From positions 53,816,001 through 53,880,000 of the forward strand of contig OZ024742.1 of NCBI GenBank assembly GCA_964016885.1: 64,000 nt of DNA. Direction: 5' to 3'. This stretch comes from Eledone cirrhosa (Eukaryota). Positions 16,169 through 33,887 of this stretch are shown here, piece after piece. The notes below the pieces were generated by a model, which saw only the letters and a program-made list of their open reading frames with translations, searched no databases and was not told the origin of the DNA. Within the stretch, counting starts at the first letter, position 1; each line of letters opens with the position of its first letter. Made by a program: the position numbers and the translations under genes.

Positions 16169-19100
16169 GTGCAGCCCGATACCCGGGACGCAGAGAGGTA
16201 AGTGCCTTTTCTCTTCACCACCAACATGGCTATGCTAAGAGTAGGCTGTTTAAATGCGCGTGGCCTGGGCTCAACTTGGAAGCAAGCAATGCTTCTAAAT
16301 GACCTCAGGTCACAACGTATAGATGTGATGGTTATTTGCGAGGCCCGGATCAGCAACGTGCGACAGCTGGCCCCCACCTTTGATGACTTTGAGATGCACG
16401 CATCTCTCTGTCAGCCCGGAGGTGGGGGTGGAGTTGTCATTCTGCTGCAAAAACATCTGGGTCTCGCAACACAGATGGTACATTTGGACCCGGAGGGTCG
16501 ACTAGTGGTTCTGGACCTTGGCAGTGGTAAAGGCGGAGCGTTTAGGTTGGTAGCCGCCTACGGCCCTTTCGGGTCAATGCGGCCGGACTTCTTCCATCGT
16601 CTGGAGACTTTTCTGGGGACGTCCCGCTCCTTGCTATTAGTGGGGGACTGGAATGGTATCCTAGATGCACGCTGGGACTACGTAGGGGCCTGCCCCGATA
16701 GAGAGGGGTGTAATAGCCTCAAAGGGTTAATCGGTCGATTTGACCTGGCCGATAGATATCGACTAGATTTTCCGACTGCGCCAACCTGGACTTGGGCAAA
16801 TCGTAGCGGATCATCTAGGTCGTACCTAGATAGGTTCTTAGTTAGAATTAAGGATAAGGACTTTTTAAGTTGTCCAAAAATGCGCATGGTTGGCTATTCA
16901 GACCACAAATTAGTGACCTGCATGGTCAACCTTGACAGGACTCATAGACAGGGCCCCGGTTACTGGAAGCTCAACTTGTCCTTGCCGGCAAGTAGAGCCT
17001 ACAGGAATCGGATTAGTACGTTAGTTAAGGAACGGTTGACTGGAGCGATCGTCAACAGCAGGTGGTGGGTATCTCTAAAGAGAGAGATTAGAGTAGTCTC
17101 GATAGAATTTAGTAAGGTTCTAGCTGCGGATAGGAATAGGAAGGAAAGGGAGCTAATAGATAGAGTAGAAGAGGCAATTAGAAGCGGCGACGTGGCCAGA
17201 GTGCTAGCGTCGAGAACGGCTTTGAGCCAGTTTTTCGACGCGAAGCACGATGGCTGCGTTGTCCGAAGTAAAATACGTGCTCTAGGGAACGAGGGGACCA
17301 AAGCTGTTAGCTCGGCCCGCGTGACAGAGGCCAACAGTGGAACTAAATCCACCATCCGGTCTTTGCGAGACCTGGATGGACGGGCGATTCTTGAGCCTAA
17401 GCAGATGTGTGAGGCCTTTCAAAGGCACTTTGCCCGACTGTTCGGGAGGGGCGGGGAGCCGGTTGGGAACGTGGACTTCGGTCCATACCTCGACGGCCTG
17501 CCGCGCCTCTCGGACAGGGAGGCGAAGTCCTGCGAGGAGCCGATTTCGGCCGCTGAGATAGAGGACGTGCTGAGCCAATGCGGCAAACGTAAATCCCCGG
17601 GTCTCGATGGCCTTCCTTACGAATTATATCTAGCTATGCCGGACTTGTTCCCCGATCTCCTCGAGGCGGTCTACTGCAACTGGCAACAGAACGGGAGAAT
17701 TCCCTGTACTGTGACCAAGGGCGTAGTCACGCTAGTGAGGAAGGACGAGAACAAGGGGGACGAAATAAGTAACTTCAGGCCCATAACACTGCTAAATACA
17801 GAGTTACAGATTTTGGCCAAGGTGCTAGCAAAGAGGTTGGCGCTTGTCGTGGGCAACCTGGTGGGAGATGCGCAGACATGCGCTATCCCGTCCAGGTCCA
17901 TCCATGACAACCTCCACCTCATGCGATACATCATAGAGAGGGTTGGGAACGAACCCGGCTTTGGTGGGGCTCTGATCAACTTGGATCAATCTAAGGCGTT
18001 CGATAGGGTCGACCATGGTTACCTGGATGCGGTGCTAGCGGCGGCAGGCTTCGGACCCGTTTTCAGGGGCTGGATCACTGCTATGCACAGCAGCCGCATC
18101 TGCTCTAGGGTCAAGGTGAACGGCTACCTCTCGGAGCCGTTCAAAATCGCGCGGTCCATCCGACAAGGGTGCCCTCTCTCCTCCCTTCTGTATGTGTTGA
18201 CTCTCGAGCCACTACTGCGGAAGTTGGAGTTGTTGCAGGGCATCCCTTTGGAACCGGGATTGCGGAAAGCGGTGTCAGCCTACGCCGATGATGTGACAGT
18301 AATGGTGTCGACGGCCTCCGAAATCGAGGCGGTCGGCACCTTACTGGAGGAGTACGAAAAGTTCACAGGGGCTAAGCTGAACCGGGACAAGTCGATCGGT
18401 TTGCAACTCGGCACGTGGAGAGGCAGACCGATGCCCTCCGATGGCGTCGTCGGACGCTGGACGGAGGGCCCGGTGAAGTTGCTCGGGGTCTGGTTCGGAC
18501 CGGACCTCCAGGTGGAGAAAAACTGGGCGGAGGTTACGAACAGGGTGTTTGCACTGACCCAGAAGTGGGCCAGTTGCAAACTATCCCTGAAAGGTCGGGC
18601 GGAGGTGGCGAACACTTATATAGCGTCCGTCATCTACTACCGCCTGACCGTAGTGCCCTGCCCAAGGGAAACCCTCACCAAGATGGAGCGCGCGCTCTTC
18701 CAATTCCTTTGGAAGGGGCGGGCTCCTATGGTGAGGAGATCCATCTGCTGTCAACACCCTTCGAAAGGAGGGCTGGGGATGCCGTGGCTAATGATGCGTA
18801 AACACGCATTAAGGCTACGGCACCTCTACGTATTCCTCACCGGACAACCGGTGTGGGCCTCGTTTGTGAGACGAACCTTTCCCAGACTCGTCTCACTCAC
18901 CGAGCTGCAATCCTGGGTCAAGCAGAGACCGAGAAAACTGGGCGCCTGGCACACCGAGTGTGCCCAGGCGCTCACCGCCCTCTGGCAGGCGGATCCGGTT
19001 ATCAGTGGAGACTCCACCGCAACATTCTATAGAGGGCTGGTACGCAGCAGGTGCGACGACGCCCTCGGAGAAGCCCTAGACATGGAGGAGGACGAACTGG

Positions 19101-19925
19101 CCAGCCTGTTCGGTAGGACATTCAGCCCGGGACCTATGGACAACTTCCAGAAGTCCCTGGCCTGGCAGTGCTACCGAGGGGCTTTACCCGTTCGAGAAAG
19201 GCTCTACAGACACGGGCGCCCGGGTAGGGACCCCGCCAAAAAGATCTGTCCCAGATGCGTGTGCGACGAGGAAACCGTTGCACACGCATTGGTACACTGC
19301 TCGGGCGTAGCCGATCTGTGGGGCTATGTCGAACAACTGCTGTCAAGGGTGGGACCGATCCGGTTGACCACCGAGTCTATTGTAATGATCAAGCCGCCTC
19401 CCCCCTTCAAAGATGAAGCAGAGGCGGTGTTTCTGTGCGTAATAGCCATGGCGAAAGAGGTTGTATGGTGGACGCGTCTGAAAGGACTGAGGTCAGGCAC
19501 CTTTCTCTCTGGCCAACAACTGGTCCGTTTCTTCCGATATCATTTCGGAAGAAGGATCAGGATGGAGAGAGAGGTGCTGCACCCCAGTCGTTTTTATGAA
19601 AGGTGGGTGAAAGTGGCGAGAATGGCCCGTGTGAATGGGCCTTCTCTTTACATAAGCCTGTAGGTGGAAAAGAGGAAGGAACGAGGGAGCACCCCCTCTC
19701 TGTGCTCCTGAGGAAAAGGGTTGCACACTTTTTTCGGGGGTGTGTGCGACCCCCCAAGGCGCCTCCTCTCTATTGAGGATTTTGTTAAAAATTTTATTTT
19801 TTGTTATATCTTATTTTATTTTTATATTTTGTTATTGCCTCCTCCTTATTGAGGACGCCTTTTTGTGTAAACTCCCCCCTTTGTACTTGTCCCACTTTTG
19901 ATGCCCTAGTGGCAAATAAAAGAAA
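16169..19925 (+). mobile_element. Tx1/L1-group non-LTR retrotransposon, 5'-truncated (ORF1 missing), in (TATC)n
   Basis: GC-rich island containing ORF2 and a 3'UTR ending 'aataaaagaaa'. TATC repeats at 16106-16168 and ~19928-19960. Confidence 0.93.
16226..19663 (+). CDS. LINE ORF2: AP endonuclease, reverse transcriptase, C-terminal CCHC (zf-RVT-like); uninterrupted
   Basis: APE motifs LNARGL, ICE, GDWN, LDRF, SDH. RT motifs SPGLDG, FRPITLLN, DQSKAFD, RQGCPLS, YADD. CPRC..ETVAH..C. First ATG at 16226 in ACCAACATGG (the ORF track starts at GTG 16202). Confidence 0.96.
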   Translation: MAMLRVGCLNARGLGSTWKQAMLLNDLRSQRIDVMVICEARISNVRQLAPTFDDFEMHASLCQPGGGGGVVILLQKHLGLATQMVHLDPEGRLVVLDLGSGKGGAFRLVAAYGPFGSMRPDFFHRLETFLGTSRSLLLVGDWNGILDARWDYVGACPDREGCNSLKGLIGRFDLADRYRLDFPTAPTWTWANRSGSSRSYLDRFLVRIKDKDFLSCPKMRMVGYSDHKLVTCMVNLDRTHRQGPGYWKLNLSLPASRAYRNRISTLVKERLTGAIVNSRWWVSLKREIRVVSIEFSKVLAADRNRKERELIDRVEEAIRSGDVARVLASRTALSQFFDAKHDGCVVRSKIRALGNEGTKAVSSARVTEANSGTKSTIRSLRDLDGRAILEPKQMCEAFQRHFARLFGRGGEPVGNVDFGPYLDGLPRLSDREAKSCEEPISAAEIEDVLSQCGKRKSPGLDGLPYELYLAMPDLFPDLLEAVYCNWQQNGRIPCTVTKGVVTLVRKDENKGDEISNFRPITLLNTELQILAKVLAKRLALVVGNLVGDAQTCAIPSRSIHDNLHLMRYIIERVGNEPGFGGALINLDQSKAFDRVDHGYLDAVLAAAGFGPVFRGWITAMHSSRICSRVKVNGYLSEPFKIARSIRQGCPLSSLLYVLTLEPLLRKLELLQGIPLEPGLRKAVSAYADDVTVMVSTASEIEAVGTLLEEYEKFTGAKLNRDKSIGLQLGTWRGRPMPSDGVVGRWTEGPVKLLGVWFGPDLQVEKNWAEVTNRVFALTQKWASCKLSLKGRAEVANTYIASVIYYRLTVVPCPRETLTKMERALFQFLWKGRAPMVRRSICCQHPSKGGLGMPWLMMRKHALRLRHLYVFLTGQPVWASFVRRTFPRLVSLTELQSWVKQRPRKLGAWHTECAQALTALWQADPVISGDSTATFYRGLVRSRCDDALGEALDMEEDELASLFGRTFSPGPMDNFQKSLAWQCYRGALPVRERLYRHGRPGRDPAKKICPRCVCDEETVAHALVHCSGVADLWGYVEQLLSRVGPIRLTTESIVMIKPPPPFKDEAEAVFLCVIAMAKEVVWWTRLKGLRSGTFLSGQQLVRFFRYHFGRRIRMEREVLHPSRFYERWVKVARMARVNGPSLYISL

Positions 19926-26509: not shown

Positions 26510-26565
26510 ACTGCCTGATGAGGTCATAACCATTCAATGGTTATCATCGAAATATATATAGCAGT
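26510..26565 (+). ncRNA. Minimal type I hammerhead, intact core, in a ~180 bp stub between (TA)n tracts
   Basis: ACUGC-CUGAUGA-GGU c AUAACCAU uca AUGGUUAU c AUC-GAAA-UAUAUA-UA-GCAGU, followed by AATAAA. Confidence 0.88.
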
Positions 26566-29777: not shown

Positions 29778-30031
29778 ATACGTGTGTGTGGATTTTAAAC
29801 CTACCACTCCATACTTCCTAGAAACACATTTTCAACTAAAAGCATTCTTTTATTGTAGGTAAGTAAGGTTTAATATTTGAAATGAATATAAATTGGTATT
29901 AAGATACTGTCTGTTTTACATTTAAACAATATATATATATATATATAAATATATATATACATTATGAAGAGAGAAGAAACATTTAGATATAATTAGTAAT
30001 AAAATGTATCATACCTAAACTGCTCCTAAAT

Positions 30032-30119
30032 TCCTCGACTACGTAGTTTCGTGGCATAAACAAAAACAATATATCAAAGATATAGAGTCTTTGCGAGGTC
30101 TGCCAACTTATCAAGAGGA
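30032..30119 (-). ncRNA. Type I hammerhead, U3-A8 core (family B copy 1)
   Basis: UCCUC-UUGAUAA-G u UGGCA..UGCCA C-GAAA-CUACGUAG-UC-GAGGA. Confidence 0.85.
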
Positions 30120-30623
30120 TACCTCATTTTACTAGTCTCAAGAACGCGTCTACACGACGTGAGAAAGAATCCCAAAAGGGCGGAGGGGGAGATAGTCACG
30201 CGATATAACGGTCGAAAAACAGAGCTAAGCCTCTTATAACCACGAAGAAAATACCACGGAGGCGGAGGGGGTATCCATATCGAGGCCGCAGAAGAGGTAG
30301 TGAAGAAGGCGAGAAGTATGAGTAATGGAAGCTTTCCAGTTGTCCCCACACTTCAAAGATTGCTCGACCAGAGGGAGTTATTAATATATTTAGAAACACA
30401 CAGATACATGCGGACACACACATATATACATGAATGCATCCGCACCCAACTGTGAGTTAAGGGTGCCAACTTCACCGATGTTGCTCAATGAATGACTGGG
30501 ACAGACCAATTCAGTTTGAACCAGACTGAACCAGTATCAGAGTTAAAAATACATTATGAAGAGAGAAGAAACATTTAGATATAATTAGTAATAAAATGTA
30601 TCATACCTAAACTGCTCCTAAAT

Positions 30624-30711
30624 TCCTCGACTACGTAGTTTCGTGGCATAAACAAAAACAATATATCAAAGATATAGAGTCCTTGCGAGGTCTGCCAACT
30701 TATCAAGAGGA
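30624..30711 (-). ncRNA. Type I hammerhead, U3-A8 core (family B copy 2)
   Basis: Same motif 592 nt away. Confidence 0.85.
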
Positions 30712-30843
30712 TACCTCATTTTACTAGTCTCAAGAACGCGTCTACACGACGTGAGAAAGAATCCCAAAAGGGCGGAGGGGGAGATAGTCACGCGATATAA
30801 CGGTCGAAAAACAGAGCTAAGCCTCTTATAACCACGAAGAAAA

Positions 30844-32454
30844 GATGAATATAAAATGAAAGTGCTTTTATAAAGGAATTTATTAGGTATTGACATATGT
30901 TTCTGTAACAGACGGAATACCTATGTATCGCTGCTTGCGTAATCATATAATGTTAGCAAGTATTCGATAGCAAATGTATAATCAGTTGTCACTTCTTCAG
31001 AGATATTGGATAAATTGGAAAAAATCAGAAAAATTGAAGTATTTATATTAGTTGTAAGAAAGGAAGAAGAGGGGGGATAGTATATGACAGATGGCAATTC
31101 AATTTACTGGTAAACAAGTATATAAAAAGTTTCTAATGAGAATACAATGAGTATATGGTTTATTTTATCTAAATAAGAATTTTTGGGAGTGCCTATTTTA
31201 ATCTATACTTGACCAATTGAACAATGGACAGGGCTGGTCGTTTGGTGTAGTAGTATTAATAGATATAAAGTGTCAATTAAGGAAGAGGGAGATTTTCACT
31301 GCTACTGAATAACAACAATGTTGGTAGCCTGCTGGTATATGCATTAGGGAATTATTTTATCTATAACAGTTTATATTAAATGGTAAAGAATAGAAGAGTT
31401 GATAGAATTAAGACTAATAGAGAATGTTAATATGTATTTTGACAATCAAACGGAGATGGAGACAGGCGTTCAATCCTGGTAGTGTTTGTAATATGATAAT
31501 GTAGATTTCAAGCGATGGTTACAGTATAACGATCGCTCTATTCTGTTATTTAATAACATATTTTTGGATTGCATAATACAAAATAATTCCATATTACCCA
31601 ATTTACAAAATTCCTGTCCGTGGGATAATGCAGGGGCAGCCGCGCTATTATATCCTATTTTAGGTTAAATTGTTGGTTATTTTCGTGCAGCTGCCAAGCC
31701 TTGTCTGCGAGTGTTGTTACATAACGCTGGTTTTCATGTTTTATCGAGTAACGATGTCTATAAAGGCGAGATTTGAAGGAGGTAGCTGTAGACCCCACAT
31801 AGTACCACTTCTGGCTATCCGATTCGATAGTGCATTTGTATATGATGTTGCGTTCAAGACACTGATTGTTCAACGGACACATTCCTGGTTGGACACAGTT
31901 ACAGTTATAATTTTGCGTTGTTGTATTGGCATGGATGGGTTGATGGGGTTGCTTAGGTAGGACAGGATGTTGTTTGTTGTTTTGTGATGTTATAGCCGAT
32001 GTTTTACGTGTATTGTTATGAGTTGGAAGGCGTTTATACAACCGTTTTGCGTTAAGCTTTTTTATATGTTGTTCAATATTAGGGGCGGTTGAATATGAAA
32101 GTCGAATAGTGTTAGGGTTTAAGATTTTATTATATTTATGTGATGTTGGAAAGTGTTTTTTAAACAAAAAGTGTTTTTTAAACAAAATAAATCTCATAGA
32201 GGTAGAAATAGCATAGAATCACCACCATACATACAGTACCGCAATAGACACACTAATAGTCACACACCACCAAACAGAAGGCGATGTAAAGAGTATATAT
32301 GGTACAACCCGGTCTATAACAACTCTATTAAAACCAATCTACCCTCACACTTCTTTCGATTAGTTAAAAAACACTTTCCAACATCACATAAATATAATAA
32401 AATCTTAAACCCTAACACTATTCGACATTCATATTCAACAGCCCCTAATATTGA
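30844..32454 (-). mobile_element. PLE fragment (linker, GIY-YIG, 3' region) with an inverted 5' piece at ~32165-32454
   Basis: ORF 31655-32197 'KHFPTSHKY..SYSTAPNI..CNC..CPLNNQCL..IIY..YVGST'. Plus-strand 'WYNP..KKHFPTSHKY'. An HHR-like motif (CUGAAGA..GAAA-CAUAUG-UC, weak stem I) lies at 30888-31005. Confidence 0.87.
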
Positions 32455-33887
32455 CAATACAACCTCTGCAGTCAGGTGACAACTACAGATATCTTGGACA
32501 GGATGAGAATGTCAGATATGATGGACCCATAAATAAGGAGAGAACCAGAACTGAATACCTCAGAAGAGTAAAGAAAATATGGTCATCAGAACTATCAGCG
32601 TACAACAAATACATTGCCCACAATACTTATGCTGTGCCAATTCTAACGCCAACATTTGGCCTGCTGAACTGGTCATTGCAAGAACTAAGTGAGATGGATG
32701 TTAGAACTCGAAAACTTCTCAGTGTTACTGGGAACTTTAACATCAATGGTGATGTGGATAGGCTATACTTCTCACGCAAGGAAGGTGGCCGGGGTCTAAA
32801 ATCAATATTAACAACATATGATACCCGGATAGTAACACTGAAGCAACACCTTTAACAGAGGAAAAAGGTTGGCAACCATCTTGCCCAGGTTTATGAGCAT
32901 GAAAAAAAAAATCATTAGAATAGCGACTGATCTGGAGGAGAGATATGGAATAAAGCCTGATATAAATCTCTCACCCAGAGAAATCGGAAGATCCTATTCA
33001 ATGTTCAAACAAGATAAAAAAATTGACCAATTTACAGAAAAAGTTGTGCATGGATACTTGAGGCGTAAAACACAGACCATAGAGGGGATAAACCACTCAA
33101 AAAGCCTGGCATGGAGTTCCGACAAGTTTATGACATCACACCTTGAGGGATATCTCTATGCAATACAGGAACAAGAACTCCCTACCAAATATGTGCTGCA
33201 CAAAAGAGGAGGGCCAGCAGCTGACAATAAATGTAGGCTATTTAAACAAAGATCGAGGATGTAAGCCACATTGTTGCCAGCTGCGAAAGAATGTAATCTC
33301 GCTACTACCTCCTCATGAGACACGATGGGATAGCTAGAACCATCTGGAACGCACTTCGGAAAACAAAATTAACAACAAACGAGGAAGAATATATTGAGAC
33401 AGATGGCACTAAGGAATACTGGTGGAACCTGAAAATAAAAACTGCCACCAAATTAAAGCACAACCGGCCTGATATTGTTGTTTGGGACCACACATTGAAA
33501 ACGTGTTCTGTTGTGGAGATCAGCTGCCCACTTGATGTAAACGTTGTCAGAAAAATACAGGAGAAGGAGGACATCAACGGACCATTGATGAGGAGTTTAC
33601 AAATCCAGTATCCAAGATACACCTTTAGCTTCATACCCATCATTATTGGAGCTATGGGTTATATACCAACCCGCTTGGACCAAAGTATGACTGAACTTGG
33701 CTTTGCGGACAAAAAGCGCAGCTCCCCAATTCATAGTCTACAAATGGCTGCGATAGCTGGCACCTTCAAAATTTGCAAAACATTCTTGCGATTCAAGGGA
33801 TGACAATTTCTTTTCTTTTATAACCTTGCGACCAGGAAGGTGGCCGGTCAAAAAAAAAATGTACTCGAAATTAAGAGAAAGAGATAA
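32455..33887 (+). mobile_element. R4/Dong-like (restriction-like endonuclease) LINE 3' fragment, frameshifted
   Basis: 'YRYLG..AVPIL..RLYFSRKEGGRGL', 'AIQEQ', decayed CCHC, 'RHD', 'RPDIVV..VEISCP', 'PIIIGAMG'. The 3' end abuts (CATA)n. Confidence 0.85.

Follow-up and report, generated by a model that had tools for sequence, protein, structure and literature searches.

The Eledone cirrhosa genome contains a young, multi-thousand-copy, non-coding family of tandem repeats that is almost certainly a metazoan non-LTR retrozyme. Its insertions are best, and quite probably correctly, explained by a PLE protein acting in trans to prime both strands of the target on a single circular, probably A-to-I-edited monomer. 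A more specific account, in which two fixed sites on an ADAR-edited RNA circle are gripped while it is rolling-circle reverse-transcribed into both target strands at once, could equally be right or wrong. If true, one mechanism would account for the tandems, tails, and inverted arms of PLEs, and RNA editing would contribute more heritable change to this retrozyme than any other single source. The available text of PMC8557442 treats the way in which PLEs produce tandem and inverted insertions as still undefined, and the circular-template model appears as a proposal in the corresponding parts of PMC4209133 and PMC7229834. With thousands of insertions that are multi-unit and two-armed, a family this young allows template-level changes to be told from copy-level ones, and the predictions are exact: start sites at positions 80 and 245 after the ribozyme cut, one per strand, on the same molecule.

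The window analyzed is the whole 64,000-nucleotide stretch of contig OZ024742.1 (positions 53,816,001 to 53,880,000), and the locus of interest within it (Table 1) is a 5′-truncated, 1.5-unit, one-armed copy of the tandem family. Its minus strand carries two 295-bp repeats (30843-30549 and 30251-29957) at a period of 592 bp, which differ by one mismatch, G at 30682 versus A at 30090, within the loop II hairpin. Each repeat contains stem I (TCCTC/GAGGA), the core TTGATAA in which U3-A8 replaces C3-G8, GAAA, and a GUC triplet, with the palindrome ACTACGTAGT as the stem III region beside the triplet; stem II has 6 bp with one bulge, loop II is a long hairpin, and the topology read from the sequence is type I in both motifs. 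C17 is found at 30629 and 30037, where the cuts had been predicted by the initial annotation, which was equally right in recognizing near-identical repeats with a U3-A8 hammerhead motif in each, a core invisible to CUGANGA searches, and a non-autonomous monomer without RT or EN coding, the longest stop-free frame in the circularised monomer being 92 aa. Within the window, Rfam gave no hammerhead among 144 matches at E<=1. As a control for chance occurrence, the 27-nt post-cut pattern has 5,029 exact matches in the genome and the reversed pattern has none. Retrozyme surveys built on C3-G8 cores can overlook whole families; PLE hammerhead variants have reportedly been described by Lunse et al. 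in 2017.

Table 1. Features of the retrozyme insertion and its immediate surroundings (window coordinates)
Feature	Position	Strand	Description
Whole insertion	29957..30843	-	887 bp (1.50 units), running from monomer position 378 at its 5′ end to position 80 after the cut at its 3′ end
Hammerhead motif 1	30624..30711	-	Type I, U3-A8, palindromic stem III; predicted cut 30629|30628
Hammerhead motif 2	30032..30119	-	Predicted cut 30037|30036
Cut-to-cut monomer	30037..30628	-	592 nt, non-coding; strongly folded (z -6.3)
Predicted post-cut hairpin (monomer 1-71)	30558..30628	-	Sequesters GAGGA; stops immediately ahead of start site 80
Predicted hairpin (about monomer 172-237)	30392..30457	-	Stops just before start site 245
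Family 3′ end, site 80	30549	-	The window copy's own 3′ end is the equivalent base, 29957
Second family 3′ end, site 245	30384	-	165-nt tail
(TA)n target at 3′ junction	29929..29956	.	
6-nt microhomology	30838..30843	-	Between the retrozyme 5′ end and the short 3′ end of the neighbouring PLE
Neighbouring PLE, separate family	30838..32163	-	5′-truncated, Hydra-type (endonuclease end and 3′ UTR)
Inverted piece of the neighbouring PLE	32183-32454		

The view that the repeats bracket a cargo did not survive this analysis, as the 295-bp “repeat” is simply the overlap of a 1.5-unit tandem and elsewhere the units per arm range from 0.04 to 7. The window unit, at 592 nt, has one extra C relative to the usual 591-bp unit of the family. 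Near identity of the repeats had been taken to indicate a recent event; the young age of the family agrees with this, but a shared template also accounts for the likeness of the units. In the 3.0-Gb genome the spacer yields 950 first-look candidates, and all 40 of those scored match at 99-100% identity, which disposes of the possibility, raised in the initial annotation itself, that the locus is a one-off deletion product of a PLE. At the 30 loci examined, the spacer sits in tandem arrays with a period of about 591.

The first 100 matches of the 27-nt pattern represent 44 loci over about 65 Mb (grouped by hand), from which roughly 2,000 retrozyme loci genome-wide can be extrapolated. A further 2,491 matches have the same stem III with other flanks, and the 20 loci read from the first 100 of these are older non-coding subfamilies (about 590-600 bp, 75-95% identity) or truncated copies; the intact older copies among these 20 retain the core and the ends. 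Assignment to the non-LTR retrozymes of metazoans rests on the presence in each tandem unit of a type I hammerhead motif, its core a U3-A8 variant, on the absence of protein coding, on a G+C content below 50% (about 42%, with 248 of 592 alignment columns G or C), and on the absence of true LTRs, the length of the repeat varying with 5′ truncation. The monomer has no RT and GIY-YIG ORF such as defines an autonomous PLE, the adjacent endonuclease fragment belonging to another family, and its type I topology differs from the type III hammerhead within LTRs that typifies plant LTR retrozymes. The insertions bear the signature of a non-autonomous PLE derivative, with two start sites, inverted arms, 5′ truncation, and (TA)n targets. 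Such targets mask any target-site duplications, which in metazoan non-LTR retrozymes exceed 4 bp when present. Runs X4 and X5, labelled as two other organisms, each gave one contig (621 and 620 nt, that is, one period plus 30, which tandem DNA would yield as well) carrying one full period (window 30051-30800) at about 99% identity. Neither run covers the neighbouring PLE, and these one-period contigs, which may reflect related species, a mislabel, or transfer, do not amount to evidence of expression; no RNA dataset is listed as carrying the sequence.

The anatomy of the insertions was read at 38 loci chosen by likeness to the window (the window included) and at 40 consecutive loci from the start of contig C1. 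Their 3′ ends fall near position 80 or 245, counted from the cut, and are followed by (TA)n; run X1 likewise has loose (TA)n ends, at 30384 and 30549. The 5′ ends are scattered, and arms extend up to 7 units. Head-to-head insertions have one end of each kind in 20 of 23 cases among the loci chosen by likeness and in 19 of 20 among the consecutive ones. With one duplicate removed, 38 of 42 independent inverted insertions are 80/245 and four have an odd end, and like-with-like pairs (80/80 or 245/245) are absent among the 42; if ends were chosen independently, 38 mixed pairs would arise with a chance of about 0.5^38 (hand arithmetic). Both arms are longer than one unit in 10 of the 38 inverted insertions, and the lengths of the two arms are uncorrelated. 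A pile-up of 5′ ends at the cut, suspected from three arms, was rejected: it is absent in the 40-locus sample, and genome-wide such ends number 17 of 5,029 against 5 of 2,821 at a control site, a 1.9-fold ratio that is not significant (chi-square about 1.7, hand estimate). The lack of a pile-up makes it less likely that the usual template is a cleaved linear monomer. At two loci, L111 and L120, whole insertions are repeated a few kb apart, the units of L111 being unusually heterogeneous, through either local duplication or assembly artefact.

How variants are shared among units provides a second line of evidence. The comparison comprised 317 segments of 78 insertions and left out L111 (duplicated, heterogeneous), the second L120 copy, one old L149 fragment, arms shorter than 60 nt, and gap-adjacent columns. 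Differences amount to 0.25% and 0.30% within an arm, 0.12% and 0.28% between the arms of one insertion, and 0.87% and 1.59% between insertions, so that the likeness of units is three to seven times greater inside an insertion than across insertions, and the two arms of an insertion resemble each other as closely as do units inside one arm. Non-majority alleles fixed in one arm are present also in the other in 67 of 67 cases. Of 32 variants confined to one unit at positions that both arms cover, none is shared across arms, which indicates that the second arm is not a fold-back copy of the first. Across the 78 insertions, 59 variants occur in every unit that covers the site and 118 in just one unit, a count drawn from 78 of roughly 2,000 insertions, so that “private” alleles may come from unseen parents; a variant present in a subset of two units of an arm was seen at only one site (L109).

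The two classes of variants differ in the kinds of change they contain. With the older subfamilies as outgroup and changes read on the RNA strand, A>G accounts for 23 of the 59 all-unit variants versus 6 of the 118 singletons (Fisher p 3e-8), and T>C for 5 of 59 versus 23 of 118. C>T is not enriched (10 of 59 all-unit, 19 of 118 singletons), and selection for G-U pairs alone is thus insufficient for the A>G excess. The 5′ neighbours of the A>G sites (U12 A6 C4 G1; 5′-G depletion p 0.03) follow the order U > A > C > G, which matches the 5′-neighbour preference of ADAR. RNA editing is heavy in cephalopods, a pointer only where this family is concerned. Predicted helices show no excess of these sites (15 of 23, versus 81 of 134), and of nine private A>G changes polarised by majority, four come from one locus, L138, in which two adjacent A>G changes are present in all 7 covering units and in both arms. 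Taken together, it is rather likely that the all-unit A>G changes stem from ADAR (A-to-I) editing. A change made once in an RNA can appear in every unit and in both arms only if the base is read repeatedly, and this provides the main argument for a circular monomer. The template was very probably circular, and it seems probable that both arms were copied from one molecule.

Folding predictions and patterns of conservation bear on the role of the ribozyme. The monomer is strongly folded relative to shuffles (z -6.3). The minimum-energy structure of the motif alone is not a hammerhead (z -0.41), and hammerhead folds lie 8-14 kcal/mol above the minimum. The dimeric fold envisaged in the initial annotation is plausible, with a predicted -248.4 kcal/mol versus -238.2 for two monomer folds, and lies 14 above the unconstrained minimum of -262.3. 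In the circle, the active ribozyme fold is predicted to cost 8.4 kcal/mol. As modelled, these energies fit cleavage in multimers and protection in circles. The core columns are invariant in the 79-83 units of the 40-locus sample. None of the 59 propagated variants falls in the 42 critical ribozyme sites, a set that leaves out the bulged base and position 7, versus 8.5% expected (binomial p 0.005); singletons fall there in 6 of 118 cases, and the contrast between the two classes is not significant (Fisher p 0.18). Across 18 sequences, 95.6% of cells pair as the ribozyme fold dictates, and one stem I pair covaries (U-A, U-G, C-G) across the older subfamilies; stem III, fixed by the search pattern, is uninformative in this respect. 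The predicted hairpins before both start sites are conserved among 16 sequences, with a double change in 4 of 62 pairs. The hairpin before site 245 (30384-30440, minus strand) looks like a (TA)/(TG) microsatellite and is perhaps target-derived.

The PLE that adjoins the window copy has the RWK, DKT, and CxCx5C motifs of the Hydra clade, and its copies, at 95-97% identity, are older than the retrozyme. Their junction is most simply a nested insertion of the retrozyme into the (TA)n tail of the PLE. L194 has a similar junction with a related PLE. A regular retrozyme-PLE chimera was rejected, as only one of eight atypical junctions found is of this kind. The neighbouring PLE itself has two ends 107 nt apart, and its inverted insertions with both ends assigned pair short with long in 9 of 9 cases (20 loci read, 5 of them picked for showing two hits), so that the pairing rule extends to an ORF-bearing family. 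Pfam has no family for the PLE fragment, and a homologue search with its protein returned 30 mostly unnamed proteins, one of them, labelled Octopus, at 38% identity. At 30885-31008 on the minus strand, this Hydra-type PLE carries a hammerhead-like motif in which loop II has about 70 nt, stem II has an apparent A-A mismatch at its base, and stem I is unclear; in the related PLE at L194 the layout is the same and stem I is clean.

An autonomous partner sharing sequence with the retrozyme was sought in several ways. None was present in the 20 loci read from the first 100 of the 2,491 stem III matches, and 12 matches read of 21 in another pattern search resembled 5′ junctions. A further pattern (101 matches, 100 in the control) led to other repeats and to one more U3-A8 family with no adjoining PLE frame, and low-stringency BLAST over the loci read gave microsatellite-like hits only, among the matches listed. 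The additional U3-A8 hammerhead family (L213, L217-L223), which has a different palindrome and a period of 675 bp in L218, is probably another retrozyme.

The proposed pathway would begin with a transcript of 1.5 units or more that self-cleaves, probably as a dimer joined via the palindromic stem III. A host ligase would then close the monomer into a 591-nt circle, in which the ribozyme is predicted to be off, and some circles would undergo A-to-I editing. A PLE reverse transcriptase-endonuclease, probably a dimer, would nick both strands of a (TA)n target and start synthesis at positions 80 and 245 of the same circle, with each enzyme circling the template for a random length. Finally, the two cDNA ends would join by 1-6 nt of microhomology to give a two-armed insertion, or one cDNA would join the target to give a one-armed insertion such as the window copy. 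Support at the level of the genome comes from the tandem arrays, the two fixed 3′ ends, the random 5′ ends, the strict pairing of ends, and the sharing of alleles. For the PAc element, the available text of PMC11167929 reports two internal start sites in vitro, nicking and extension of both strands, and a predicted dimer. The same text describes uncleaved RNA as the dominant template in vitro and insertion even of ribozyme mutants, and according to the accessible part of bioRxiv 10.64898/2026.07.22.740005, 8 of 9 tested retrozyme dimers did not cleave.

A rival reading takes a linear, uncleaved multimeric transcript of a parent array as the template, with the same two start sites and a ribozyme acting late or rarely; in its favor, unprocessed RNA was the main substrate in vitro (PMC11167929, in the text available). 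Homogeneous young parents would also yield homogeneous daughters, and the absent 5′ pile-up at the cut fits this reading too. It is unlikely, however, because an edit or error on such a template would hit one unit, yet A>G is found in 6 of 118 singletons versus 23 of 59 all-unit variants and L138 has its two adjacent changes in all 7 covering units of both arms; moreover, lengthening of arrays and fixation of alleles would presumably need a monomer bottleneck at some step. A different doubt concerns the source of the A>G excess and leaves the circle unchanged: selection on RNA structure (A-U to G-U) or RNA-to-RNA copying might take the place of ADAR, editing and RNA-RNA replication both being named as open options in the available text of PMC7229834. 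Many A-U/G-U swaps do occur in the conserved hairpins, and A>G sites show no helix enrichment, which does not favor editing either. Since C>T would preserve pairing as well but shows no enrichment (10 of 59 versus 19 of 118), and since the order of 5′ neighbours matches the preference of ADAR, such a source is possible but on balance doubtful.

Two further explanations were considered. Inverted arms could arise by self-primed fold-back of the first cDNA, with arrays growing by later, satellite-like duplication at the DNA level; palindromic junctions are read as self-priming in the available text of PMC3846280, and local amplification by unequal crossover is proposed in that of bioRxiv 10.64898/2026.07.22.740005. 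Near-mirror 5′ ends occur at 7 of 38 junctions (2.0 expected, p 0.003), and L111 and L120 represent DNA-level duplications or assembly repeats. Against this stand the 31 of 38 junctions that are not mirrored, the 0 of 32 unit-specific variants that are, the uncorrelated arm lengths, and the occurrence at L109 alone of a variant in a subset of two units, all of which make this history very unlikely. On the preferred circular template, the near-mirror junctions might arise when, of two enzymes on one circle, the trailing one catches up with the leading one. That the window locus is a rearranged end of the adjacent PLE, to whose 3′ end it is directly joined, is scarcely credible: in 14 of 14 other copies this PLE finishes in a microsatellite or in a 107-nt tail of its own, and nothing there resembles the monomer except at the monomer's microsatellite-like stretch, the one atypical junction in eight that enters the retrozyme is the window's own, and the family census (950 spacer candidates; 5,029 cut-site matches) refutes the idea.

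Other repeats were encountered along the way. Near-perfect tandem arrays with periods of 471, 310, and 247 bp (L158 1-3239, L172 1-1525, and L134 1329-2564; 98-100% matches) are possible further retrozyme-like families. C3-G8 type I hammerhead motifs of other families lie in the window at 26515 (plus strand) and 3325 (minus strand), the first recurring in L171. An uninterrupted 1153-aa frame at 16202-19663 (plus strand), with matches to APE-type endonuclease, RT, and zf-RVT, belongs to what we take to be an L1/Tx1-like element. At 32409-33803 (plus strand), a broken non-LTR element abuts the inverted piece of the neighbouring PLE; its endonuclease motif, presumably of the restriction-like type, has no Pfam hit.

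Metazoan non-LTR retrozymes have been described as a class (Cervera and de la Pena 2020, PMC7229834; Li et al. 2026, bioRxiv 10.64898/2026.07.22.740005), and the parts of these papers that are available portray elements much like the Eledone family, with non-coding tandem units, one type I hammerhead in each, low G+C, dispersed short arrays, and a proposed circular intermediate mobilised by PLEs. The U3-A8 core sets the Eledone family apart, and its unit of 591 nt exceeds the 150-450 bp of PMC7229834 but falls within the 51-972 bp of bioRxiv 10.64898/2026.07.22.740005. Fixed double 3′ ends, two-armed insertions, and an editing signature are not described in the available text of either. A search that covered mostly open-access main texts turned up no account of strict end pairing or of edits that became fixed in arrays of retrozymes, and the supplements of bioRxiv 10.64898/2026.07.22.740005 may list such families. 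Plant LTR retrozymes (PMC4918200) likewise have two hammerheads that release a monomer of about 600 nt, but their type III ribozyme, true LTRs, PBS/PPT, and mobilisation by Gypsy elements, as described in PMC7229834 and bioRxiv 10.64898/2026.07.22.740005, contrast with the permuted tandem overlap found here.

Likeness to EN+ PLEs is closest in the manner of insertion. In Poseidon PAc (PMC11167929), Adineta Penelope (PMC3846280), and the Hydra clade (PMC8557442), so far as the available text of these sources goes, there are two internal start sites with an optional tail, head-to-head inverted arms, 5′ truncation, AT-rich or (TA)n targets, and a hammerhead shortly upstream of the 3′ end. The retrozyme differs in having no ORF, in its multi-unit arms, and in a tail of 165 nt versus 30-40 in PLEs; whereas the tail in PLEs is optional at one end, the strict pairing seen in the retrozyme is not stated for PLEs in those texts. 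U3-A8 hammerheads have already been reported in Cercyon PLEs of Schistosoma mansoni, which, by the available account in PMC4209133, share the covariation of the core, the type I fold, a bulge near the base of stem II, and a palindromic stem III. The Cercyon motifs are mostly single and heterogeneous, whereas the Eledone motif is nearly invariant and tandem, its stem III measuring 3 bp and its loop II forming a long hairpin (compared with the same part of PMC4209133). The retrozyme class, the U3-A8 core, and the pair of start sites had thus each been known before, and the Eledone family lets the open mechanism be tested directly.
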